Shown piece by piece: positions 10,477-29,747 of a stretch of 64,000 bases of DNA. The DNA is from Dictyostelium discoideum (Eukaryota), in NCBI GenBank assembly GCA_000004695.1, contig CM000153.2, positions 2,688,001-2,752,000 of the forward strand, written 5' to 3'. The translations under genes were made by a program, and so were the position numbers. How positions within the stretch are numbered: position 1 is the stretch's first letter; every line of letters starts with the position of its first letter. The notes beneath the pieces were generated by a model, which searched no databases, had not been told where the DNA came from, and was given only the letters and a program-made list of their open reading frames with translations.

Positions 10477-11183
10477 ATGGTATTACCATTATTAAAAGTT
10501 GGGTCATTATTAATTAAAAGTTTGGCTAAACCATTGTCAAAACAAATTAAAATAAGAGCATCAAAATCACCAATATTCCATGACAGAGTTGTTAGAGGTG
10601 CAAGACTATGGCATAAATTAGATTTGAAATTAACCAAATTCAATGGCGATACAACTAGAAAACCAGTAGATTTAAATGTTAACGCTGCAATTGATTTAGG
10701 TACTGAAATAGTTTCTGAAGCATTTTTATTAAGTGTTGCAATTGGTCTTTTATTATATGAAACCTCAAGAAGTTCTGAAAAAGATAAAAAGAAAGAAGGT
10801 AAGTTATATAAAGATATAAATATTTATATATCTTTCTTTTTTTGGAAATAAACTATAAAATAAACTAATAATAATAATAAAAAAAATAAAAAAAAAATAA
10901 AACAGAGGCACTACAAAATAGATTTAAAAATTTAGAAGAAAAACTTGAAGTTCAACAAGAAACTATTAATAATTTAACAAATGTTATTGAAGCAATACAA
11001 TCATCGAATCCAAATTTAAATATATATATTGACCCAAATCAATCAACAAAATCATCAATTGCTGAATACATAAATACTCATAATATTAAATTAAATTCTT
11101 TAAAAAACGCGCAAACAGAAAATGATTATAAATCAATTTCCAGTGAAGGAATTCCAAATAAAAGAATATCCAATGTAAACTAA
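10477..11183 (+). CDS. OPA3 (optic atrophy 3)-like mitochondrial protein, 2 exons.
   Basis: join(10477..10798,10906..11183), with a GTAAGT donor at 10799 and a ..AAAACAG acceptor at 10905. The protein MVLPLLKVGSLLIKSLAKPLSKQIKIRASKSPIFHDRVV..ARLWHKLDLKL...AIDLGTEIVSEAFLLSVAIGLLLYETSRSSEKDKKKE-ALQNRFKNLEEKLEVQQETINNLTNVIEAIQ aligns with human OPA3 along its length ([41 protein letters not shown]... and a C-terminal coiled coil). Confidence 0.75.
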
Positions 11184-11985: not shown

Positions 11986-12309
11986 TCTTTTTTTTTTTTT
12001 TTTAATTTTAAGTAAAATTATTATTTTATATACAATGATTTGAGAAGGTCATATAACCCTTTTATATTTTTTTGTAGTTGGTTGTATAAGTCCTTTGTGT
12101 GAAAATGTTTGTGTGGCGTTTGAGTGTGAAATATTTTTTTTTTTTTTTATTTTTAAAACTTTTTCAACTTTTTTTTTTTTGTTTGTTTTTTTTTTTTATT
12201 ATTCGTTTATTTAATTAAAACAGAGGAGAATTATCACAGAAGTTCAAAAGCCACAATGAAAAAAAATAAAAAAAAAATAAAAAAAATAAAAAAAAAAAAT
12301 AAAAAAAAA

Positions 12310-12345
<36 letters not shown>

Positions 12346-12405
12346 AAATTTGATCTTTTTTTTTTTTTTTTTTTTACATATTAACTCTAAACACCAATAA
12401 AAAAG

Positions 12406-13644
12406 ATGTTAAGCAAATCAAATAATATCAGAAAGTAAGGAAAAAATTAATTTTTATTAAAATTTTATTATATTTATCTAACAAAATATATATTTTCAAA
12501 TAAATAATAAAAAAATAAAAATATTTAGAGTCTTTGCCAGAGGATTCACAACTTACGTTCAACCAGGTAAATTCAATGCTGAAACCAACGAAACCATTGG
12601 CAATAGAATTAGCAATGTTTGTGAAAAATTCTCATATAATGATGCAATCTCTATTCCAGATCATGAAAACTACACTTTAACTTATAATGATGTTTTAGTA
12701 AGTAATACGAAAAAAAAAAAAAACAAAAAAAAAAAACAAAAAACAAAAAAAACCCAAACTAACAAATTCAACATTATTAAAAAAAAAAAAAAAAAATCAA
12801 ATCAAATCATAATTAAAAATCAAATATAAATAGCAAAATACAAGAGGTTTAGCAGGTGGTTTTATTGAGCACAGCATTAAAGATGATCAAACAATTGTTT
12901 CAAATTCATTTGGTGTTGATAGTACAATGACACATATTGCAGCATCATTTGCAGGTTTAAATTATGTATCAATTCCACCAACTTCAACATTCTCAGAAAT
13001 TGGAACTCATTTAAATAATCAAAAAGCATCATCATTCGTTATGGCTGATTCAAACCAAAGAGTTATGGTTGATGAAGCATTAGAATTCTTCCCAAATTTA
13101 AAAACTAGTATGTAGTTAAATAATTAATAATACAGTATGACCCAATATTTTTAAAATTGAACTAGAGGATTTAAGAATTTTATCAATATAAAACAACAAT
13201 GATAATAATATCAAGTCATTATATATCTATATGATGATTGATATATATATATTTATATTTATTAGTACATATGTACTAACCCAATTATATTTATAAATAT
13301 AGTTTATAACGATGAATATCACAGAGATAACAGATTCCCAGAATTAAAACATATTTTTTCAACAGGTGCATCACAACAACCAGGTATTAGTTTATTAAGA
13401 GATATTATTTTAGATACCAAAACTTCACCAAATAAAAACGTTACAAACACTCAAATCTCAGCAACCTACCCAGTCGCTGATGGAAAATACGTTTCATTCA
13501 CCCAAAAATCACTTTTAAATACAGCTGATGCTTTAGCTGAATTCTTTAATATCAAAACAGCCCAAAGATTTTCATTTGCCGCTCCATTATTTGAAGGTAA
13601 CGCCACTGCTTTCAGTAAGTATTAAATAATAATAATAAATAATA

Positions 13645-13730
<86 letters not shown>

Positions 13731-14014
13731 AAAAAAAAGATTATTAATTGAGTTTTTTTTTTTGTTTTTTCTTATTTATAATGAAAAGACCTAGCATGTC
13801 TTTCAAAAGGTGCTTTGATCGCACTCATCAGTCAAATTAATCCAGCAAACATTTTAAATTCAATCATTAAAGATAAATGTGATAACCTTTTCATTTCATC
13901 ATCAGTTTTAAATACATTAGTTTCAAGCCCAGAATTTGCAAGAGTTGAAAACTTTGAATTAAAGAAATTGATTGTTGGTATGTATATATAACTATATTTA
14001 TGGTTTTCTTTAAT

Positions 14015-14057
<43 letters not shown>

Positions 14058-14424
14058 CAATTATGGTACCACATATTAATAGTTTTGAACAATTTTAATT
14101 TTTTTTGAAAAAAAAAAAAAAGTTGGAGAAATTGATAATTCAGTTGTTAAACAATTTGAATCAAAATGTAAAGGTGTTGAATCATCTATTATTCCATTCG
14201 TTCATGCTGGTCAAATTTCAGGTGTAGTTTTCAATTCATCAGGTGTTGGTAAACTTTTACCAAATGTTGAAGCTAAAATCGTCGATAGCAATGGTAAAGA
14301 GTTAGATTTCGATAATAAAGGTTCATTAATGACTAAAGGTTTCCATGTTGGTTCCAATCCAGCTCATTGGTTAAAAACTAACATCAAAGCTTCAATGTCA
14401 AAAGATGGTACCATTAAATTATAA
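12406..14424 (+). CDS. Degenerate AMP-binding (acyl-CoA synthetase / 4-coumarate-CoA-ligase-like) family protein. It is truncated before the C-terminal subdomain and may be a pseudoenzyme, with an N-terminal presequence-like segment. 6 exons.
   Basis: Manual model: join(12406..12434,12529..12697,12834..13107,13303..13614,~13789..13977,14123..14424). The donors are GTAAGG, GTAAGT, GTATGT, GTAAGT and GTATGT. The N-terminus MLSKSNNIRKVFARGFTTYVQP looks like a mitochondrial presequence. The protein carries the family blocks ..KIVDSNGKELDFDNKGSLMTKGFHVGSNPAHWLKTN..DGTIKL* (compare canonical ..KIVD.dGkel..ge.GEl.vrGp.vm.GY..). Its P-loop-equivalent is FSTGASQQPG rather than the canonical (S/T)SGTTGxPKG. 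The reading frame terminates before the A8-A10 motifs and the catalytic lysine. The first base of the exon-5 acceptor is uncertain (13789 or 13794). Confidence 0.5.
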
Positions 14425-14431
14425 ATCTTAA

Positions 14432-14479
<48 letters not shown>

Positions 14480-14977
14480 TTTTTAAAAAAAAACCAATAT
14501 ACATCTCTAAACAAAATTAAAAAAAAAAAAAAAGATAAAAAATAAAAAATGTTATAAATAAATTAAATCTTTTTTTTTTTTTTATTTAAATAATTTTTAT
14601 TAATCCCAAATAAAGGTTAAAATAAAAATAGAAAAAGATTTGGATATGCAATTACAGTTTTTTTTGGATATTTTAATAAAATTTGAAATTTTTAAATGAG
14701 TTGGAAATTGGTGTTTTTGGAGGAGGTTTATGGTTTTTGATAAGGTTTTGAGAATTAATTGAAAATGGAGGTGGGCTTTGAGATCTAATACAATTTGGTA
14801 TTGAGTTATAATTGTTTTTGAATATTGGGTATTGTTTTTTATAAAATTGGGTTTACCAAACCTTTTATTGTTGTTGTTGTTGTTGTTGTTGTTGGATTTT
14901 ATTTAATTATTTCTCACATTCCATTCTCTCTAATTTTCTTTTTAATTCTTCTATTTCATTTTTTTTTATTTTCACTT

Positions 14978-15894
14978 TTAATTGTTTCTTCTTTCTATCT
15001 TTAATATTTGTTTTTCTATATGTCTCACCCAATCAAGTTTTTCTCTTTTTGCTTTTTCAAGTTGTCTTTCTCTTTCTTCATTTTGTTCAATTGGCAGTGT
15101 TTCTATTTTCTTTCTTTCAATTTCTTGTTTTTGATTTTCATGTTTCAATTTTTCTCTTTCAATCATCTCTTTTTCAATTATTTTATTTTCTGATTCAATT
15201 ACATAGGTTTGTTCAGTTCTTTTTTCATTTGCTATTTTTTCCAGTTTTTCTTTTTCTCTTTCACTTTTATCTTTTCCATTTTGTTTAATTTGATATAGCT
15301 TTCTATTATTTTGGATTTCAATTTGTTTAATTTGATTTAAAAGTTTATCATTTTCTAATTTTTTAATTTCAATTTCATTTTCAAATTTTTTAAATGGTAA
15401 AAGTTCATCTTTTTCCATTTTTTGTTTTAAATATTCAATTTGCTTTTTTTCAATTTCCAATTGATTTTTGAGGATTTGGTTTGTTAATTTTTCATTTTCA
15501 CAATCTTGTATTAATTTATTTATTTTATCTAAATAATGGTGTTTTATTTCTTTAATTTCTTTTTTATTTCTTATCTTTTCATTTTTCAATTGACTTTGAA
15601 TTTCTATTTCTTTTGAGTCATGATAATTTTCATTATCACTTACATAGAAACTAAATCTTGATTGATTTTTTGCTGACGGATGAAATAAGGACCCATCTGA
15701 TCTTTTTAAATTAATATTACACCCTCCGTTGTAAGAAACAAATTCAAATTTTTCTCTAGTTTTATTATCATAAACTATTTGTGGTCTAATAAATTATTAT
15801 AAATTAATAAAAATATATTTACTGTTAAATTTTTTTTTTTTTTTTCTTACATTTCATTATTTCTTGATGAACTATCAAAATTTATTTTTCTCAT
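14978..15894 (-). CDS. K/E-rich coiled-coil protein of unknown function, 2 exons.
   Basis: complement(join(14978..15785,15851..15894)), with a GTAAG donor at 15850 and a ..TTATTAG acceptor. It extends track ORF 14978..15589 upstream in frame (MRKINFDSSSRNNE|IPQIVYDNKTREKFEFVSYNGGCNINLKRSDGSLFHPSAKNQSRFSFYVSDNENYHDSKEIEIQSQLKNEKIRNKK...). The C-terminal 200 aa are a heptad-like EK-rich coiled coil. Confidence 0.45.
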
Positions 15895-16244: not shown

Positions 16245-18791
16245 TTAACTATTTGGTTTATAAAGTTTAAAATAATTTAATAAAAAAACATTATTTAAAG
16301 TGACAGATGAACTGTTTAAAAGGAAAGATTGATAATTTGTAATTTTTGGTAATGTTTTAAAGAATGGATTTTTGAAAAATTCTAAAACCAAATCAATATG
16401 ACCCATTTGCACAGAGGTGAAAAAAATGGTATTAGAAGTAACATCACGAGAATCATTTCTTTCTCTAAATAAATTATAAATCATTGTTTGGTAATTTGAT
16501 TGTAAATGTTTAAAAACATTTAGTTGACCATAAATACTAATAAATTTTAAAAGGTAAAAAGGTAAATGTCGACTCATTTTACCTTCATCAAATGATTTTA
16601 TAATTAAATCAGCAAACCACAAATTACCATATAAACCAATTTCTAAACTTGTGATTAAATAAAAATCATTGAAATCTTTTGATGAGCCTAAAAATTGGGG
16701 TAATGAAATATGATCAATTCCATTGGTTTGTTTTAATCTAAGATAATTGAAAAGAATATTATACTTTGGATTCATTATATTACATCTTCCACTTTCAATA
16801 TCAAAAGGTCTGTGATTGAAAATGTATGAGAAAATTCCAACAGAATCCCATTGATTATAATTATTATATAGATAGTTTACATTTGAAGGAGTACGCTCAA
16901 GTATATATTTAAAATCATTTAAATTAGTGAATTGATAACCATGAGTACTTGGAGTAAAATGCCAAATATTCATTGAATCATAATCGAAATCATCGATATT
17001 ATCATAGATGAATTTAATAACATCCATTGAAATTTCTGAATAATTTCCTTTATGAACCAAATCTTTAATACTAACATAGTAGATATTTGGTTGTAATAAT
17101 TTCAAATGTTTCAATAGTTCAGATTTACCATCTTGAATTAATGTATTAACCAATGAAAAATTTACATTATTACCTCTTGTACAAATTATTGAATAGATTG
17201 TTTTATTCTTAATAATTAAATCAATCATTTCAGTTGAATTTATAGATCTATAAATTCTACCAATGGAAAGTGGTTCATTTGTAAATTTAAATTCAATATT
17301 TGAATCTATTAGCAAAAGTTTAACCAATTCTAAATCATTTACAAATATTAAATTTAATAAAATTTGATTAATTGAATTTTCTATTAAACTTGTTGATTTT
17401 TGTAATTTTTTAACATCACTTATTAAATCTTTAATAAATTGAATTTGTTTTGATCTTTCATTTTTACAATAATAAAAAATTGGAAGTTTACCAAACATTT
17501 TTAAACCTTCATTTTTGATTTTATTAAAATCATAAACACCAAATAAACATGGATGAAATTTTGAACTTAAATCTAATTCTTCACCATAATAAGATTCATA
17601 TTTAATTTTATAAAATAAAAAACTATCATTAAAATATGATGATTTAAATTCTACAAATGGTAAAATAAATTGATAAAATCTTTTAACCAAAGAATTAATA
17701 TTATTATCATTTGATGAATTGAATTCAAGTACCAATGTATTTAATTGTTCTTTTGTAAATGATTTTGTTAATATATTAATTTCATCAAGTGAATTAAATA
17801 AATTAATTTTATCATTAAATAGTTCATTTATATCTTTTTCATATTTAATTATTTTTAATTTATTATCACTTTTAATTTTATCAGTTGAATGAAATTTATT
17901 ATATTTAAAAGATTTTTTAGAGATTGAATCTGTATATGGTTTTAAAAATTCTTTTAAATGAATAATTGATTTTACAGATTCAATTAATACTGATAAAGTT
18001 TGATCATAAACTAATATATCAAATAAATGATATGGTTTACATTGAAATTGAAATTTTTGTTTATAAATTGCTTCACTTAATGGTACATTTAAATTACATT
18101 GATTTAAAAGAAAATTTAATCTTTCATTTAACAAAAAACCATTTTTATTTAAAATATTGGTGTTATTATTATTTGATGAAAATAAAACCATACTCCAAAT
18201 TTTATATAACGATGCTGGCTTTTCAAGTGCTCCCGATCTCTTTAAAACTTGGAAAATAAATAAAGCACAATCATATGACCCAATTTCAATGGATCTATAA
18301 AGTGAATCCAATGAAAAACAATGATTATGACATGTAACTAATGCCTCCAAACATTGGACATTATCATATTCAATTGAAATATATTCACATTGAATTATAT
18401 TACCATTATCTATGAAATATTTTGAATAGTTTTTAAATAGGTGATAATAAAAGTTTGAAGAATTCCATTGAGCTTTAGTTGAAATTTGTTTATTAAAAAT
18501 TGAAAATTTATTCACTACAATCATTCGACCATTATCATATTGTCTTCTTAATTTATTTCTAAAAATTGTATCACTTGAGTTTGAAAAATCCAAATATTCT
18601 CCTCTTTGAATTTTATCTTTTAATAATTCATAATATTCAAATTGCACACACCATTCACATGATATAATATCTTCATATTTGTAAAATCCTAAAAATATAT
18701 CTCGATTTCTTAGAAATTTAAAAATATTTTGTTTTAAAAATATATTTCTAAAAATCTTAAAAAATAATTTATCATTTATATTATTTTCCAT
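16245..18791 (-). CDS. Large hypothetical protein (848 aa). It is I/N/K/F-rich but not low-complexity, and no domain is recognisable by eye.
   Basis: A single uninterrupted ORF, cysteine-containing with complex composition (e.g. CEWCVQFEYYELLKDKIQRGEY, HNHCFSLDSLYRSIEIGSYDCALFIFQVL). The N-terminal LFFKIFRNIFLKQNIFKFLRNRDIF resembles the N-terminal motif of an expanded dictyostelid hypothetical-protein family. Its function is unknown. Confidence 0.5.
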   Translation of the reverse strand: MENNINDKLFFKIFRNIFLKQNIFKFLRNRDIFLGFYKYEDIISCEWCVQFEYYELLKDKIQRGEYLDFSNSSDTIFRNKLRRQYDNGRMIVVNKFSIFNKQISTKAQWNSSNFYYHLFKNYSKYFIDNGNIIQCEYISIEYDNVQCLEALVTCHNHCFSLDSLYRSIEIGSYDCALFIFQVLKRSGALEKPASLYKIWSMVLFSSNNNNTNILNKNGFLLNERLNFLLNQCNLNVPLSEAIYKQKFQFQCKPYHLFDILVYDQTLSVLIESVKSIIHLKEFLKPYTDSISKKSFKYNKFHSTDKIKSDNKLKIIKYEKDINELFNDKINLFNSLDEINILTKSFTKEQLNTLVLEFNSSNDNNINSLVKRFYQFILPFVEFKSSYFNDSFLFYKIKYESYYGEELDLSSKFHPCLFGVYDFNKIKNEGLKMFGKLPIFYYCKNERSKQIQFIKDLISDVKKLQKSTSLIENSINQILLNLIFVNDLELVKLLLIDSNIEFKFTNEPLSIGRIYRSINSTEMIDLIIKNKTIYSIICTRGNNVNFSLVNTLIQDGKSELLKHLKLLQPNIYYVSIKDLVHKGNYSEISMDVIKFIYDNIDDFDYDSMNIWHFTPSTHGYQFTNLNDFKYILERTPSNVNYLYNNYNQWDSVGIFSYIFNHRPFDIESGRCNIMNPKYNILFNYLRLKQTNGIDHISLPQFLGSSKDFNDFYLITSLEIGLYGNLWFADLIIKSFDEGKMSRHLPFYLLKFISIYGQLNVFKHLQSNYQTMIYNLFRERNDSRDVTSNTIFFTSVQMGHIDLVLEFFKNPFFKTLPKITNYQSFLLNSSSVTLNNVFLLNYFKLYKPNS

Positions 18792-19151: not shown

Positions 19152-20944
19152 CTATACAAAACCAAAACCTTCTGAAGCTTCACCAATTGCAATTTTTAAT
19201 AATTTTTTCAATTGTTCTTGAGATTCATATTCTGGTATATCCAATTGATTGAAACATGTGTGAGCGGTTGGTAATCTGTGAGCATTACCTCTGATTCTAT
19301 GAATTTGGAATTTTTGAGGGCCTCCCATACCACCTAAAGCTTTGAAACCTTCCAAAGGTACTTTACTTGTACCAGTGACAAATTGTAAGAGTGAAGCTTT
19401 TTCTTCATTTGAAAAGTTTGAAACAGTATTCCAGAACCAAAGGATTTGTTGAGAATCGGAAGAGTAACCACTATATTCAGTGTTTGCACGAAGATCATCG
19501 ATATCAATCTCTGGAAGACCACTGATCAATAATTCCAACTCCATTTCATTGAAAATACCAATCAATGATTTTGGAATGAGTTCGTGGAAACCTTCTAAGA
19601 AGCTATTGATTTGATCCTTGATTGAGTTTGTCATTCTAACGGAAGCAACCAAACGAACATATTCTAATTTATTATCTTCAGTGACAGGAATGTTTGCACC
19701 ATTTGGTTTCAATTCGATAACTTTCATGGAATCGAAAATATCGATCTCTGTACTAAATGTGAGTTCCATGACATTGGTGATATCATTATCAAGAATCCAT
19801 AAAAGATTCTTATGATAAGTTGGGTCAATTGCCTCCATATCGCTAACATTGATTGTGAGACCCAACATATGTTTATAGAAACTTCTAGTGAAGAAAGCAT
19901 CCAGCATCAAACCATCATACAATGCCTTACCAATGATTCTTCCAATGAATTTAAAGTAAGATAAATGATCTGGATTGATGTAAGATTCTGGATTTGGTTG
20001 GAAAGTTACATTATCAGAGGCAGATTGTTTAAAGAGAGCATAACCAGGATTAAACATCTCTCTTGATAAAACGAGATACCATTCACGTAATAAACCACCA
20101 GCATCAAGACCTTCTTCACCAGAGAATTGAATATTGAGTTTACCTTTGAGTTCTTCGGCTGGACGCATTCTAAGTTGATTGTAACTGTCCTCAAATATAT
20201 GATTTCTACGAACTTTTAGACGAATTGTACTTGATCTCTCTTTCTTTGATTGGAAGTAGTTTCTAAAGTAAGTTCTCTTATTATCAAAATCTAAGAATCT
20301 AGGAGTTTTAATTAATACTGCTAATGATTCCGATAACAATGAATTATCTTGACGAACGAGATCATTGATCAAATGTTTATTTTGTTCTACAAATTCAAAG
20401 AATCTACTTGTATTATAATCCATTATTGGTGGAGTTCCTGCCAAATTACCATTGCTAGTACTTGCAGACAAACCATTACCAACTGATGAACTAAGTTTTA
20501 ATCCTGCAAGACTTGGTGATGATGGAATCATAGTGGATGATAACATCTCAGAGGTTGGAGAATTTACAAGGAAATAAATTTCAACCAATGGTAATAATAA
20601 TGAATTCATTGGATTGGATCCTGCTTTCTTTTTGCTTGTAAGTTTAAGTTTGGTTATTGGTTCTTTTTCTTCCTTTTCTAAACTAAACAATGTAAGGAAT
20701 GATTTAATTGATCCCCAAAGTATATCTAATTCATGATTATTTGAAAAGTATTCTCCTAATGTCATTGATGGTTGTTCTTTCTTTGTGTTTGTTGTAGTTG
20801 TTGTAGTGGTGGTGGTTGGTGTAGTATTTGAAGTTGATGGTGTTGTAGTACTTGGTGTAGTTTCTGTAGTTGCACTTTCTGTTATAGGTGTAGTTGTAGA
20901 AGCTGCAGGTGAAGTGATTGAGTTAGCAGCTGTAGAAGATGGAG

Positions 20945-21019
<75 letters not shown>

Positions 21020-24000
21020 CAATAATTGGATCAGGTTTCTTTGGATTTAAAATTGATTGAATAGTTTGTAAAACTCTTAAGAAATTATTTTCTTTTGTTG
21101 AAGAAGGAAGATAGTTTTGAGGTGATACATCAGTATCATTAAAGATCTGTTTCATTGATTCCAAATTGTTAATTACATCTTTTGTTAATCTTTTAGCATT
21201 TGTATTTAATTGATCCAAGATGATTTGTCTATTTTCATCACAACTAACGGCAATGGTAACCAACAAACTACCAATCTTTGGATTACCAGCTAACAATGTA
21301 TTGATTAAACTTTCTACTTGTTGGCTTGGAATGAGTGGAATCTTTGGTTTTTCAGTGCTTGTAGAATCGACAATCAACAAGAGAATTGAGATCAATCTTT
21401 CAAGGAGTAAAGATTTTGAAAAGATGTTTTTATCATTCAATGCATCACATAATTTCCAAAGTGGACAGGCCTTTTCGAGGGATGGACTTGTTGAACCAGA
21501 TCCATCATCTTTCTCTTTTCCATGACTATTTTGTGATTGAGTGGAAGGTACGATTGGTTGAGGAGTTAACATCCAATTGACGGTTAAACTATTACCTGTG
21601 GTTAAACTTTGAAGAATATCCAATAATCTCTTAACGACCAATAATGGTGGATGATTTGTCACTTCGAATGATCTAAACATACGGAATCTCATTAATGGGT
21701 GACATGGATCAGTGATTGGTGAGAATTTATCAGATTCAGCGGTTTTTCTTTGGGGTTGTTGAGAAACAATTGATTGGTAACCGGTTAAAATTTGAAGGAT
21801 ATAACATAACAACTCTTCACGATTATCAGAAAATGTGCAAATTTGAACGAGAATACTATTTAATTGTTGTCTATTGATGGATTGATCAAAGTGTAGGATT
21901 TTAATGAGTGCTAATAAATTCTCTTTTTTAACCAAACTACCAGCTTGATTGACTTTCTTTGGTTTTGCAACCTCTTTGAGGATTCTACGTGGTGATGGAA
22001 TACGATTGAAACTATCAGGGATACTTGATCTAAACTCAAATCTTGGTGGATGTGTTTCACGTAATCTTACTGCTTCTGCGTGAAGTTCTGGTGGTAAGGT
22101 TTGAAGGAATGCTTCTGGTTGACTCATTAAAACCTCCTCTCTAAGATCTGGTGGAAGTGTTGCAAGGAAAGATGCATTATCCATATCTTGAACCAAATCT
22201 GTTGGATTGACTGATACTCTTGCTACATTTCTAGCTGCTTGTGATGCCCTACGTTCAGAGATAATTCTTTCTTGTTCTAAAACTTCGTTTTGAATCTCCA
22301 ATGGTAAAGCGCTTAAAAACTCTGGATTGATTGTAATTGGACCATCACCAGTGTTTGATTGGTGAATTGATGTCAATTGAGTTGACAATACCTCTGCTCT
22401 TAATTCTGCTGGTAATGCTGCTAAAAATGTTGGATCAATACCTAAATCAACATTAATTGGTGCTGGTGGAGCTTGGGTTGTTGGTGGATTAGTTGATGTG
22501 GTAGTAGTGGTGGTGGAGGAGGTGGTTGTTGAACTTGTAGTTGTTGAACTTGATGCTTCAGATTCAACTGTTGGTGATGTAGTTGTTGTTGTAGTTGCTG
22601 GTGGTGGGGTGGTTGTAGTTGTAGTAGTTGGTGGTAAATTTGTAGTTTCGGTGATTGATGAAGTTGATGTACCAGATTCTTCAAGTGGTGCATTTTCATT
22701 ATTATTAGTGGTAGTAGTTGACTCATTAGTTGACTCACTAGTTGATTCATTAGAAGTAGTAGTAGTAGTTGACTCATTAGTTGACTTATTAGTTGATTCA
22801 TTAGAAGTAGTAGTTGGTAGTGGTGTATTTACTTCTGTAGAACTTTGTTGAATTGGTGGACTTGTAACTAAAGGTTCAATAGTGAGTGGTTCGATTGGTA
22901 ATGGATCATTTACTGCTGCTGTAATTGTAGGAGAGTTTGTAACAGTCTTTGGAGTTGTTGGTGTAGAAGTAGTTGAAACATCATTTGTTGTTGGTGAAGT
23001 GGTAGTTGTTGCTGCTATTGAATCTGTTATTGAATCTATTTTTGTCTCTGTTGTAGTTATTTCAACTTTTTCAGCTCTTTCTTTTTCTTCCTTTTCTTTT
23101 TGTTGTCTCTTTAATTCTTTTAATTTTTCTTTTTCAGCTTTTTCTTTTGCTCTCAACTCTTCTTTTAATTTCTCTTTTTCAGCTTTTTCTTTTGCTTTTT
23201 GAGCTGCTTCTTCCTCTTTGGTGATTGTAGTTAAAATTTTAATGAGTATTAATTCAAATGATTGAGCATAGGCGACTGATTCATCAGTGTCATTCTTTAA
23301 ACGATTGAAATCAAAGGAGTAAAGATTTCCATCTCTACCAAGTCTCAATCTTGCATTGGAACGAAGATCGAAATTCATTATCATTTGTTCAAATCTTTCC
23401 AAGTTTCTTGTCAATTGACCTGGATCGGATCTAATAAGATCCTCGATACGACCTTCATTTTGACCAAGAGCAACGAGAATATTTGAAAGATTTCTTTCAA
23501 CATTTTCACCTATCCAATTTCTAAGATTTGCATCTGAACCACCTTGTGGCATAGCAAGACGACGATCTCCACCCAAGAAGGCTTGTTCCATCATTGGATT
23601 GAAATTTTGATGAGCACCACGGAAATGATTGATGAGGTGGTGTTGTTGTTGTTGATGGTGTTGTTGTTGTTGAGGGTGGTGATGATGATTTTGATGTTGA
23701 ATATGATTAATGTGATCGATTTGAGCGAATTGTCTTCCTCTTTGTAGATTATCTTCATTGTTACTATCATCATCCTCTTCATCATCATCGTCATCATCAT
23801 CGTCATCGTCATCATCATCATCGACATCATTTTGATCATCTTCAGAGGATGATGAACTTCCATCACTATCATTGGTATTTTCAACTTCCTCTTCTTCGTC
23901 ATCAGAATCTTGTTCATCATTGATGATTGCATCATCAATTTGACCATCCATACCATTTTCAATAACCATTTCAATGTCTTCACCATCTTCACCATCACTA

Positions 24001-27000
24001 TCGTCCTCATCGTCATCATCTTCATCATCGTCTTCGTCATCTTCATCCATTTCAATGACTTCATCTTCACTATCGGAACTGAAATCTAATCTACGAGAAC
24101 CAACACCAATTGAATTGGAGTGATGCATATCATTTTCAAATTCTGAATCGAATTCAATTGTTCCAGGTGGACCACCACCATTGAAAGAGGTGGCATTTGT
24201 TTGGAAATCTCTGGTGGCTCTAAAGAAACCATCATATGCTTGATATGGAAGTTGGAACATATTGGTTCTGGTGGAATCTTCCTCTGTGGTTGGTTTTGGA
24301 AGTGAAGAGAATTTTGTGAGGTGTCCAATAGTTTGTAATAATGAATTGATCATTTGTGATGCACGTGAACTACCAACGTCAACAAGATTTAATAACTCCA
24401 ATAAAATATTGATCATATCGTTATTGATCATAAGTTGATTGAATTCGCTTGAGAGTGAATGTGGTGGGAAATTCAATAATAATGAAACCAAATTACTAAT
24501 GGATACCATCTTATTGTATGGTATCTTTTTGTTGGCCACATTTTGTGATGAATATTCAGCGATTGATAATTTCAAATGTTCAGCGATCGCAGAGAAAACT
24601 TTTTCACGACCATCTTCGGTTGAACACAAAGAAACCAAGAATCTTGAAGCAGCTTGATGAGTTGCATTAAATAATTCACCACTTGCTTTCTCTTCAGCAG
24701 TCAATGAGGTACATGGTAAGAAATGTTCAAAAACGTATTGAACCAAATTAACACCTTGATAATTTAAAATGGTTTGTTGGAACAATGGGTATTGAATTAA
24801 TAATTCCTCTAACAACCTCAATATATTTGCTTTGCTCAAGATATTTGATGTTTTATCTTGAAGTTGTTGATCGGCTGCCAATGCTGCTGCTACACTTGTT
24901 ATACTTTTCAAAGATGAAGATTTTCTTAATTCTTTTGATAATTGTGCTGGTGTTGGTGTATTATTGGTGGTGTTGGTGTTGGTGTTGGTGTTGGTGTTGG
25001 TGTTGGTGTTGGTGTTGGTGTTGGTGTTGGTGTTGGTGTTGGTGTTGGTGTTGGTGTTGGTAGTAGTAGATATAGATGAAGTTGTTGAAATTGGTGTTTC
25101 ATCTTTAATTAATAATGATTTAATTAAAAAGTTTGAGAGTTGTTGGAAATGTGGAAAATCTTTTAATTCACAAGAACTAACATTCTTTTCAAAGATTTCA
25201 TTTGCTTGTGCAGACAAATAGACAGAGTTTGAATTGGTATGAATACGACAAATTTCTGAACAAGCCTTTAAAAAAGTGATTGGATTCTTTGAAACATCTT
25301 TAGAGAGTAAACCCAATAAAGTTTTAGTTGGAATACCTTTTGAAACACCCTTATTATTAATTGTATGACGAATATTTGATTGCATAGTGTTGTAAACGGT
25401 TTTATTATCATCCAAAAGCTGTTTGAAAATATTGATCACATAGATTGTATTCTCTTTTAACATTGAAGACTTGGTATTTTTGGCTTGTAAGAGAAGCATA
25501 CCTTGATTCTTCATAAAATAGTTTGCAATAGCATAGTTTTTAGTGAGTTCAGAGATTAATTTCAATAATGATCCATCGATTATACTTGGTGAAGGTTTCA
25601 ATAATCCTAAACAAATATCAATCAATGTAGTGTCTGTTGGTGAACATCTATCTTGTTCTTCCTCTTGTTGTTTTTGTAGTTTCTTTTCTTCTGCCTCAAA
25701 ATCAAAGTTATTGGTTGGTTTAATCAATTGTTTCTTTGAAAGGTCATATGTAATCGATAATAATCCATTCAAATAAATTAAAATTGATTCAGATGTTGTA
25801 GTTGGTGATTTAGGTCGTTTTGATGGTGTTGTTGAAGTTGATATTTTATCATCATTGGTGGATGTAGTAGTGGTGGTGGTGGTGGTAGTTGAAGAATCTA
25901 AAGGAGTAACAGAAATTTGAATTGAATCATCATTTCTAACCAAATGATCTTTTAATAAATTTGAAATGACTTTAATGACCAAAGCTAATAAACCTTTTTC
26001 AACAAATAAACCACTAATTTCTGGTGATTCATTTAATTTTTGAATTATAAAGAATAAACTTTTTGTTTTAAATGAAAAGAATTTAAGTTTTTCTTCGACC
26101 AAATGAGTTTGGACCTCTTGGATCAAACGATTTGCAATGATTTCTTTTGTTTCGCTAATGTTACCATCCTTTATAATAAAGTGAAACATTTTGAAAATAG
26201 AATCCAATTCATTTGAAGAATGACCTTTTACATTTAATAAAATGGAGAGAGTACGATCAAATAAGGTTGGACGTAAACCATTGAGTAGTGAAGTAATTGA
26301 ATTTTGTTTTTCTTTTTCTGCTTTTTCCTTTTCTAATCTCTCTTTTTCTGCCTTTTCTGCTTTTTCTGCTTTTTCTTTGGCTTTCTTTTCTTCATCCTCT
26401 GGAATGTATGGATTACTTAACATCCAATCGGTAATATTATCAACATTATTTGATTGTAATGATTGCATGGCAGTTTCAATATGTTCTCTAATAAAACCCA
26501 TATCCATGAGGGTATTTATAGAGTTTTCATTTGGAACAAAGGTTGGTCTAGAAGGTGGAGATTGAATAGATGATTTTTTAGATGGATCTTGTTGTTGTTG
26601 TGTTTGTTGTTGAGCAACACCATCATATTTGAGGAAAACATCATGTACACAATCTAATAAATTCTTGGCATAAGGAAGATCTGAAAGTTGAGGATGGTTC
26701 CAATAGTTTTGTAAATTGAATACCAAATTTGGAATAATCTTTTCAGAGATTGATTTCAATGATGGCAATGTTCCACCGTTCATACTCTTACTTGAGGTTA
26801 ATTGAAAAATGGCTTGACGTAAGAGTGAACCACATTGAGTTAAAGGTTGTGAATATTTGAAAGCATCTAAATTTCCATTGGGTATGCATTCAATATAACG
26901 ATCAGTTAAATCGGACAATATACCAAAGAATGTATCAAAATAACCAACATCATATAAACCATTGATTAATTGAGGGAACAATAATGTAGAATTATTTGTT

Positions 27001-27269
27001 AAAACCTTTGAAATGTAAACGTAATATTGTGTTTTGGCGCATGGATCTGATTCCTCTGGTTTCCATTGAATCCAACCAACTAAATTCTTTGAAATATTCT
27101 TTGTTAATAACTCTGTCTTTGTTTCATAATTTAAACCATCCCTTTTGTTTAATGAATTTATAGTTTCAAAAAAGTATCTTGATAAATCTTCTAAATTTGT
27201 TAATAAACTAGAATTTAAAAATAGATTTAAATCTAATGGTGGTTGAGTTACTGTTGTTGTAGTTGTTGC

Positions 27270-27311
<42 letters not shown>

Positions 27312-29747
27312 ATTTTCATTATTTGATGTTTCATTATTATTATTAGTTGATGATGTTGTTGATGATGATGATGATGATGATGATGAACTAATATGTTTGT
27401 TTGTTGGTGATTCATTAGTTGTTGTTGTTGTTGTTGTTGATGATGATGATGATGATGATGGTTTATTTAATGGATTAGGTAAACAAAATACTGAATTTTC
27501 ACCACAAGAAAATTCCCAATAGAATGCTTTTTGAAGTGCACAAAGTGAAGAATAAACAGAGAGTCCATCTTCTTTTGACCATTCATCTAAAACTGGAAGT
27601 GGAATATCTGGTGGATTTTCACGTACTAAACTAGTGAGAATAAGTACCAATGATTTAATAACATCGATTGTACTTTGAATATCGTCACGGCAAGCCAATT
27701 CCTCTGGTACCCAGTCTCTAATGATTCTAGAGGTTCTCCATTCACAAAGTACATCCAAAGTGGTGAAATGATTATTTAAAACCTTAATGATTGATCTGAG
27801 TACGGTTGGAGTATTATCGATACTTAAAGATTTGAAAATCATGAGATCCTTACAAATGAATTGAGAACTAGTGTAGATATCTAATAATTTCTCTAAACCA
27901 CCTTCTTGAATGAAAATCTTATCATGTTCACCATTTGAAAAGAATAATGTAATAAATTTATTGATCAATAAAAACATTTGATTGTGAGTTGATTTCTCCA
28001 AAGCAGCTGTTGATGATGATGGTGATGATTTTGGTTCTTTTGGAGGAGTCATTGCAATTACATCATCCAATAATGAAATGATTTCTTTAATAGTTGGAAT
28101 TTTTAATTCTGGGTGATGTCTAACCAATTCATCCAATCCATTTCCAATTGAATTTAATGTACGAATATTTAAAGAGTTTACATTCTTTGGATTAACCAAG
28201 GTTTTTAAAAACTTTCTAATGAGACCACTTTCTGAAACTTTGGTTTTAAAAGCAGAGTTTAAACAAAATGCATTGAGTGTCTCTGGAATGATGTAAAGTA
28301 TCTCGTGAGGAATCTCTTTATTCAAAATGAAATCGAATATCATATCAATGAGACCAGTATTATTGATTGCAGTGAAACAAGTTGGTTCATTTTGAATTAA
28401 ATTGGTTGGAATAATGAAACAATCGGCAATGATTGCTGGTATAAATGATTCGTAGTGTGAAAAAATTGATTTCAAAACTTGATGGATTGGGCTATCAACA
28501 ATTTGATTCAATAATGCTCTTGGTATTACAGCTGTACCCGAAATTGGTAATAAACAATTCATCAATCCCAATAATAATGTTGATTTATGGTATAAAAGTT
28601 TTAAATAAAATTCGTCATTTAAAATATTTTCATCAAATTTATATTCTTTTTTGGTTGTTGAATCAATTAATTGTTGTTCAGTGGTTGAAGTTGTGATGGT
28701 GTTGGTGTTGGTGGTGAGTTGCAATAAATCTTTATCTTCTTTTTTGTTTAAAATATTACTACTACTACCACTATGAACTAAAGGTTTCTTTTTCTTTGAT
28801 TCATCACTAATATTGGTTGATGATGATGATTTCTTTGAAAAATAAGTATTTTCAACAACTAAATCATCTTTAGTCTCTTCAGGTTTTTTATAATTTATGA
28901 TGAAATCAACTTCCTCTGATATTGAAGCAATTAGATCTTGAAGATAACCTTGTTCACTAAACAATTCAATATTATTTAATTTAACCAAGAAAAGTGATTG
29001 AATAATTTGAAGAGCATTGATTTGGAATCTAAGATGATATATATTGGTTGTATGATTCTTTATCAATGGAAGTAATGATTGGAATACAATGTTCTCGTGA
29101 AGTAAAGCTTTATTTGAGAGTTTGAATACAAAATAAAACATTGCATTAATGAAAGACTCGGTGATTAATGGATCTTGACTGGTACCAGTGATCACTGCAA
29201 CACATTTTCTAATTACACTTGAAAAGAAACCCGATGAGAATGATCTTTGTAAAAGTAATGTTAAACTACTGGTTGGTGTGGTACTTGCCAATGCTGCCAT
29301 AGTATAGATGCTAGCTACTAAAATTGGTTCTGGAACTATAGTATAGTTTTTTAATAACTCCATCAATTCACCCAAGTATTCGGTGTCTTGTGTTCCTCCA
29401 AAGTTGTAGTTTGTTGAATTGGATGCAAAGTTTATCAATGATTGATGATAGAGAGTATTAGTTGCTACTAATCTCAATTGCATATATTTCTTTCTATATT
29501 CATAGTTTGGTAATCCCTTTAATAAACCAATTCTAAAATGTACAAAGTATTGATCCTCCTCTGGAATACCATAATCTTGAATCAATTTGCTTGCAATCTC
29601 ATATGGTGTTGCATTAATCTTATCAATATCAAATAATCTAATTATAACTTTACCACTTTCTTCAATTGTTGATACTGTTATCTTTTCAAAAAATATTGAT
29701 TTTGAATTTATATTTATATTTGATGTTGGTGGTGATGTTGAAGATGG

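Follow-up and report, generated by a model that had tools for sequence, protein, structure and literature searches.

A hinge-truncated ANL-family gene of Dictyostelium discoideum and its candidate role as a structural subunit of a mitochondrial complex

The locus, its gene model and its transcript

A gene for a shortened AMP-binding protein lies in the window, that is, the whole 64,000-nucleotide stretch of Dictyostelium discoideum DNA analysed here (assembly GCA_000004695.1, contig CM000153.2, positions 2,688,001 to 2,752,000); all coordinates below are those of the window. The gene occupies 12406-14424 of the + strand in six exons, with GT..AG at every intron, in a strongly AT-rich region (GC content 0.10-0.31) as is usual for Dictyostelium. 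Its spliced open reading frame (ORF) of 1275 nt, 424 codons, gives a 424-aa product identical to D. discoideum AX4 DDB_G0284963 (XP_639958, UniProt Q54NV9), whose sole annotation is that of a hypothetical protein with an AMP-dependent synthetase/ligase domain; no mention of DDB_G0284963 or Q54NV9 was found in the literature searched. The product is proposed to be a mitochondrial pseudoenzyme consisting of the N-terminal domain of an ANL (acyl-CoA synthetase/luciferase/non-ribosomal peptide synthetase adenylation) protein, and its most probable role, with a probability of about 0.6, is that of a non-catalytic structural subunit in mitochondria, with complex I as the most likely host.

The gene is expressed and spliced as modelled. 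A public assembled contig of 1328 nt (Logan SRR24091721_8979, here L006) carries an uninterrupted ORF and aligns to the window in six blocks at 100% identity, the ends of which coincide exactly with the modelled exon boundaries. It spans 12386 to 14457, remains collinear across the TAA stop and ends in a (TAA)n tract of the 3' untranslated region (UTR). The six-exon structure given in a preliminary description of this DNA agrees with the transcript, and splicing from near 14400 to downstream exons, which that description had named as the case that would overturn a truncated protein, is contradicted by a contig running unspliced past the stop. The parts of the gene are as follows.

12386..12405, + strand: 5' UTR, matched by nt 1-20 of L006 at 100%; the lower bound is the reach of the contig
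12406..12434, + strand: exon 1, coding part, from Met1 to base 2 of codon 10; the presequence-like N-terminus begins here (model and transcript)
Residues 1-16, + strand, ending at 12547 in exon 2: presequence-like segment MLSKSNNIRKVFARGF
12529..12697, + strand: exon 2, remainder of the presequence-like segment, then the start of the ANL N-domain (model and transcript)
12834..13107, + strand: exon 3, ANL N-domain (model and transcript)
13303..13614, + strand: exon 4, family motif, degenerate P-loop position and degenerate A4 motif (model, alignment and transcript)
13789..13977, + strand: exon 5; the transcript uses the acceptor at 13789 (model and transcript)
14123..14424, + strand: exon 6, coding part, with the TAA stop at 14422-14424 (model and transcript)
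14425..14457, + strand: 3' UTR into (TAA)n; its extent is the reach of the transcript contig

Exon 5 starts at one of two in-frame AG acceptors 6 nt apart (13789 and 13795), the first of which is taken by the transcript; a 422-aa model from another strain (P0008), two residues shorter, may use the second. An (AAT)n microsatellite lies within intron 4 (13625-13730), and a (TAA)n tract directly 3' of the stop codon (14433-14480); L006 ends inside the latter. Long poly(A)/poly(T) tracts precede the start codon at 12260-12375.

Loss of the catalytic motifs and maintenance of the truncated gene

The product matches Pfam AMP-binding (PF00501) at E 4.5e-15 with 55.8 bits, above the cut-off of 29.9, which agrees with the N-terminal AMP-binding subdomain recognised in the preliminary description. 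An AlphaFold2 model reached a predicted local distance difference score (pLDDT) of 74.6 and a predicted template-modelling score (pTM) of 0.80, and Foldseek gave TM (template-modelling) scores of 0.70-0.77 to ANL N-domains, with the mitoribosomal protein mL69 (6hix_BC) at rank 5. In the predicted structure the ANL N-domain fold is present. The ANL motifs A3, A4, A5 and A7, together with the C-terminal subdomain, are essential for adenylation. Their positions were mapped by column-wise alignment to 95 canonical N-domains and by hhalign, as listed here.

13332..13406, + strand: family signature RFPELKHIFSTGASQQPGISLLRDI, residues 168-192, containing FSTGASQQPG; truncated-family consensus 'rfP.Lk....T......G.....dllvy'
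13467..13496, + strand: true A3 (P-loop) position, YPVADGKYVS (residues 213-222) for yTSGTTGxPKGv (column-wise alignment, hhalign)
13581..13604, + strand: A4 position, APLFEGNA for lPlfH.fG, His to Glu (alignment)
14197..14223, + strand: A5 position, FVHAGQISG for YG.TE.sp, Thr-Glu lost with Gln-Ile instead (alignment)
14254..14340, + strand: best-conserved block LLPNVEAKIVDSNGKELDFDNKGSLMTKG, the structural beta-hairpin/A6 region, in truncated and canonical proteins alike
14365..14421, + strand: A7 position and C-terminus HWLKTNIKASMSKDGTIKL, KTNI for TGD, Asp to Ile (alignment, hhalign)

The segment FSTGASQQPG had been taken for the P-loop. That the P-loop is degenerate holds, but the segment was misplaced: FSTGASQQPG (residues 176-185; 13356-13385) aligns about 35 residues upstream of the P-loop, in the '...P.LK.vi......G...f..ll' region, and forms part of a family signature RFPxLKHIxxTG...PG..LRDI, at which Tetrahymena NDUTT2 has KFANLQHIIHTGFYTFPGTYKFRQIM. 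The true position, YPVADGKYVS, is shortened and unrecognisable, with neither a Gly-rich loop nor a Lys, and is followed by FTQKSLLN in place of LtH.nivN; a P-loop regular expression ((T/S)SG(T/S)TGxPKG) found no match in any dictyostelid orthologue. Good conservation is limited to the structural block LP.vE.KiVD..G....G..G.L..KG. The chain ends with ...SKDGTIKL in the strand just before the A8 hinge, so that A8-A10 and the catalytic Lys are absent as previously described, and the transcript confirms the stop. Canonical mitochondrial and bacterial medium- and long-chain acyl-CoA synthetases (PF00501 plus PF13193, such as FadD1, 3g7s, and FadD13, 3r44) keep A3, the A4 His, A5 and the A7 Asp, all of which DDB_G0284963 has lost, and they possess the A8 hinge, the A10 Lys and a C-terminal subdomain of about 110-120 aa that it lacks.

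Because the ATP/AMP-contacting motifs and the entire C-terminal subdomain are missing, adenylation or thioesterification by the known ANL mechanism is predicted from the sequence to be impossible. A residual enzyme, in which the N-domain still activates a carboxylate, either unaided or together with a C-domain from another gene acting in trans, would have the intact substrate-binding N-domain fold in its favour, and the search for a C-domain described below covered only the window and the orthologous loci. Such an activity is nevertheless highly improbable since no class of ATP- or AMP-binding residue in the N-domain has escaped replacement, as seen in the deleted or unrecognisable P-loop and the changes at A4 (His to Glu), A5 (Thr-Glu to Gln-Ile) and A7 (Asp to Ile), and the replacements themselves are conserved among dictyostelids.

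The shortness of the protein could also reflect a missing downstream exon or a dying gene, both of which had been left as alternatives in the preliminary description. The C-terminal ANL domain was sought by tblastn with 55 canonical C-terminal regions in the 64-kb window and five orthologous loci, and nothing was found (best E 0.048), the sole matches near the gene being overlaps with the last residues of the gene's own product; as a control, the N-domains of these enzymes gave the expected matches. A convergent minus-strand gene starts about 200-500 bp past the stop in six of six species. Orthologues of 403-428 aa are present in five other dictyostelids, namely D. dimigraforme (424 aa, 91% identity to D. 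discoideum), D. citrinum (424 aa, in the same 90%-identity cluster as D. discoideum), D. firmibasis (423 aa, 76%), D. purpureum (403 aa, 56%) and Polysphondylium violaceum (428 aa, 46%), their coding sequences having been recovered from genomic DNA by a splice-aware exact matcher. All end with ...(K/N)(D/N)G(T/S)I(K/Q)L and share the position of the stop codon; the positions of introns 1 and 2 are kept in all species, as is the gene order OPA3(+), zf-HIT(-), ANL(+).

The gene is under purifying selection. The ratio of nonsynonymous to synonymous substitution rates (dN/dS, Nei-Gojobori) was 0.23 between D. discoideum and D. dimigraforme (Fisher p 2e-11), 0.21 between D. discoideum and D. citrinum (Fisher p 6e-12) and 0.17 between D. 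dimigraforme and D. citrinum; it was 0.34-0.42 against D. firmibasis, and synonymous sites saturate at larger distances in this codon-biased genome. An unseen exon is thus excluded by the transcript reading past the stop, the close convergent gene and the absence of a C-domain by tblastn, and decay by the intact ORF, the stop codon common to six species and the dN/dS of 0.17-0.23, far below 1. An annotation artefact or pseudogene is hardly credible and has no positive support; what could be said for it is a length unusual for the family and one D. citrinum assembly (ACTFIV_004145/6; P0010, P0011) in which the orthologue is annotated as two genes of 159 and 291 aa. The first of the split models ends with ...NLLSSM, which is a read-through of the exon-3 donor, while the other strain (P0009) has an intact gene of 424 aa; the split is probably an artefact of annotation, not a real disruption.

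Relation to truncated ANL proteins of mitochondrial complexes

A single-sequence phmmer search against the PDB gave no significant ANL match, with spurious nucleoporin matches at E 0.03-0.05, so that a profile was needed. An exhaustive HMMER search with the dictyostelid profile returned 744 matches at E ≤ 1e-3. Among the best 150 of the 744, 47 are P-loop-less and end at the hinge (median 442 aa), with such truncated proteins dominating the top ranks. A further 73 are complete enzymes whose C-terminal tails measure 100 aa or more, and the TSGTTGxPK loop is present in most of these 73. Truncated proteins usually end with (D)GW(L)xTGxxAxxDxxGxxxL before the stop. By cluster look-ups most are unnamed metatranscriptome contigs, many about 1.5 kb long, which would suit full-length transcripts; the named members are those of Synstelium polycarpum, of Balamuthia mandrillaris (KAL6078299; Amoebozoa), of Acrasis kona (KAL0481411; Heterolobosea) and of Diplonema papillatum (DIPPA_02911). 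A word-indexed homologue search with the family alignment and the Balamuthia protein brought mostly canonical bacterial ligases and almost no new taxa. The EukProt model of the Synstelium orthologue (P0013, 427 aa) is a chimera that also lacks the last ~45 residues: over residues 1-33 it matches the C-terminal portion of the OPA3 homologue just upstream of the ANL gene in the window (10477-10851, + strand) at 58% identity (E 2e-11). Transcription may have run through from one syntenic neighbour into the other, or their transcripts may have been wrongly joined.

Truncated mitochondrial ANL proteins have been described before (NDUEG1/NDUTT2/NDUTB17, and mL69), a family that the preliminary description did not recognise. 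NDUEG1 of Euglena gracilis (PDB 8iuf chain E1), NDUTT2 of Tetrahymena thermophila (7tgh chain T2) and NDUTB17 of Trypanosoma brucei belong to a module that occupies the tip of the complex I peripheral arm (He et al., PMC10884005). Like DDB_G0284963, they comprise the ANL N-domain only, without the C-terminal catalytic domain or P-loop, and have a presequence-like N-terminus. mL69 (T. brucei 6hiv/6hix chain BC; Leishmania 7aih chain Ai) is situated in the central protuberance of the large subunit of the highly protein-enriched kinetoplastid mitoribosome; it is 14% identical to the DDB_G0284963 product, and its insertions such as 'YYE..LRRL' also occur in the Acrasis and Diplonema proteins but are absent from dictyostelids. 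The chain end at the hinge is the same in DDB_G0284963, mL69, NDUEG1, Diplonema, Balamuthia and Acrasis, the NDUEG1 chain running on for about 11 residues past the same profile end. NDUTT2 has in common with Dictyostelium the signature KF.xL.HIIHTG....PG...FRQI, against RFPELKHIFSTG...PG..LRDI. At 333 aa, with a family-profile match over positions 39-285, NDUTT2 appears cut shorter than other members; a literature search for a description of the Tetrahymena protein gave nothing useful.

Profile searches connect these proteins. DIPPA_02911 matches kinetoplastid mL69 at E 2e-85, NDUEG1 at 3e-23 and Tetrahymena 7tgh_T2 at 3e-9, and it has been listed both as an NDUTB17/NDUEG1 orthologue and as mL69 (PMC12699882). 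The best PDB match of a dictyostelid-only profile was mL69 (3e-5), ahead of every true enzyme, and mL69 was also the best PDB match of the Balamuthia protein, aligned end to end.

For a direct comparison, a profile of 33 truncated proteins, from which dictyostelids and Discoba were excluded, was set against a canonical profile of 95 N-domains. The truncated profile scored higher with D. discoideum (291.7 versus 200.6 bits), NDUEG1 (160.6 versus 112.2), T. brucei mL69 (272.6 versus 198.4) and NDUTT2 (115.5 versus 99.3, on the 197 aa available); the PDB sequences in scoring and trees were rebuilt from HMMER alignment printouts and are incomplete for NDUEG1 (450 of 483 aa) and NDUTT2 (197 of 333 aa). 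After masking of canonical-conserved columns at three thresholds, the advantage for D. discoideum was still +52, +42 and +30 bits, and the similarity is therefore not merely a common loss of motifs. By hhalign, the dictyostelid scores were 415.6 with the truncated family and 299.9 with canonical enzymes, and those of the Discoba group 559.7 and 514.8. On all columns, a neighbour-joining (NJ) bootstrap of 88-90% separated dictyostelids, the 33 truncated proteins and Discoba including NDUEG1 and mL69 from the canonical proteins. By these scores the D. discoideum sequence lies nearer to the truncated proteins than to the canonical enzymes.

Mitochondrial targeting is suggested by the N-terminus, which is basic and hydroxylated, has its first acidic residue not before position 28 and contains a conserved R-x-(F/Y)-(T/S) at residues 14-17 (R14-G-F-T in dictyostelids). 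The N-termini of the truncated family are likewise basic and acid-poor, mostly with R-x-(F/Y/L)-(S/T/A). From these features, by a heuristic on composition and motif only, we infer import of the DDB_G0284963 product into mitochondria, in line with the presequence-like N-terminus noted earlier. A peroxisomal reading of the C-terminal -KL as a peroxisomal targeting signal 1 (PTS1) was rejected, as the -IKL/-IQL ends do not fit the consensus, which is (S/A/C)-(K/R/H)-(L/M), and the N-terminus is presequence-like.

A model is proposed in which DDB_G0284963 is one of a family of ANL proteins, spread across eukaryotes, that are truncated at the hinge, lack the P-loop and start with a presequence-like segment, and in which its product would be imported into the matrix as a folded, non-catalytic scaffold and docked on a large mitochondrial complex, probably complex I in the region of the N-module. 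Membership in the truncated family with a non-catalytic mitochondrial role is very likely, and the scaffold-like, non-catalytic relative of adenylate-forming enzymes suggested in the preliminary description gains support from the motif loss and from that membership. Complex I as the specific host, at roughly even odds, is favoured because this location is common to two distant supergroups (Euglena and trypanosomes; Tetrahymena).

Several observations weigh against this model. The host in Dictyostelium is inferred by homology only, which does not settle on one complex, as the protein of the same euglenozoan lineage occurs in both complex I and the mitoribosome. The text of the Acanthamoeba complexome paper (PMC13632651) does not mention an ANL-like subunit of complex I; it reports 13 non-human proteins that co-migrate with complex I, among them the uncharacterised ACANB03328, which is also in an N-like module. 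The direct hhalign score between dictyostelids and the NDUEG1/mL69 group of Discoba (252) is lower than that between dictyostelids and canonical enzymes (300), so that the link between dictyostelids and Discoba runs via intermediate truncated sequences, and a pairwise phmmer search started with NDUEG1 does not recover the dictyostelid proteins. With motif columns masked, the exact bootstrap support for the truncated clade drops to 31-60%, most replicates misplacing at most 2 of 97 taxa, and at the strongest mask (threshold 0.35) the canonical profile has a lead of 15.7 bits for D. purpureum. A first, larger NJ tree put the fast-evolving Dictyostelium branch beside the canonical clade and Synstelium inside the truncated clade; the NJ trees use a simple distance, on an alignment guided by the hidden Markov model of the truncated members. 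Finally, the hinge is a natural domain boundary, at which independent truncations would end alike.

Two other roles have to be weighed against these data. Were the amoebozoan loss of motifs and C-domain independent of that in NDUEG1, NDUTT2 and mL69, the product, instead of being a stoichiometric subunit, could work in the matrix as a soluble pseudoenzyme, for instance by binding an acyl/CoA-related ligand, by regulation or by helping in assembly. The low direct score between dictyostelids and Discoba, the weaker clade after masking and the hinge as an obvious site for truncation all fit such convergence, as does the proximity of the entire truncated family to canonical enzymes (hhalign 591). 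It is unlikely, however, since dictyostelids, NDUEG1, mL69 and NDUTT2 all prefer a truncated profile containing neither group, a preference that holds under masking except for D. purpureum at the strongest mask, and since the split on all columns is well supported and the proteins have in common presequence-like N-termini and the non-catalytic signature (R/K)FPxLKxIxxTG..G...RDI. The other role keeps the family and changes the host: the product would be a structural protein of the large subunit of the mitoribosome, located like mL69 in the central protuberance. The leading rank of mL69 among PDB matches would fit, but is partly due to its PDB sequences being full-length and less divergent than NDUEG1. 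Only for kinetoplastids, with their exceptionally protein-rich mitoribosome, is a mitoribosomal location on record, while that in complex I is documented by cryo-electron microscopy or proteomics in Euglena, Tetrahymena and T. brucei, from two supergroups; a mitoribosomal host is accordingly quite unlikely. A search for a structure of the Dictyostelium mitoribosome found none.

The assignment to the truncated family gives a hypothetical AMP-binding protein a concrete, testable role. The published distribution of the family, Alveolata and Discoba, is extended here to Amoebozoa and many uncultured eukaryotes, which would place the recruitment of a catalytically dead acyl-CoA synthetase to mitochondrial machinery much further back in eukaryote history. 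Tentatively, and at somewhat less than even odds, the truncated ANL protein may be an ancient accessory subunit of complex I (or one shared with the mitoribosome), possibly as old as the last eukaryotic common ancestor, which was kept in Amoebozoa and lost in animals, fungi and plants. If so, a protein of the NDUTT2/NDUEG1 type would be no peculiarity of alveolates and discobans, and DDB_G0284963 would offer the first knockout handle in a model organism on a dead acyl-CoA synthetase at the N-module. For work on complex I and on mitochondrial disease, Dictyostelium is an established model in which knockout and tagging are straightforward. The case also shows how a truncated gene met in a scan of raw sequence is distinguished from a pseudogene.

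Neighbouring features of the window

Between the convergent genes, a short G-rich stretch with T-rich runs lies on the + strand at 14600-14860 (GC skew +0.71). On the minus strand a single ORF of at least 3477 aa (19152-29585) has a HECT ubiquitin-ligase domain at its C-terminal end (Pfam E 1.6e-104 with the last 782 aa) and contains long low-complexity Thr/Ser/Asn/Gln and acidic tracts. Two minus-strand ORFs without Pfam matches are located between the ANL gene and this giant HECT gene: a K/E-rich, coiled-coil-like ORF at 14978-15589 and an 848-aa ORF at 16245-18791. The next called gene after ANL is a 475-aa HECT-domain model in D. purpureum, and in P. violaceum one that exceeds 3600 aa and for which no Pfam match is recorded; because the next called gene in these species is a HECT or large model, the two ORFs may be a lineage-specific insertion.

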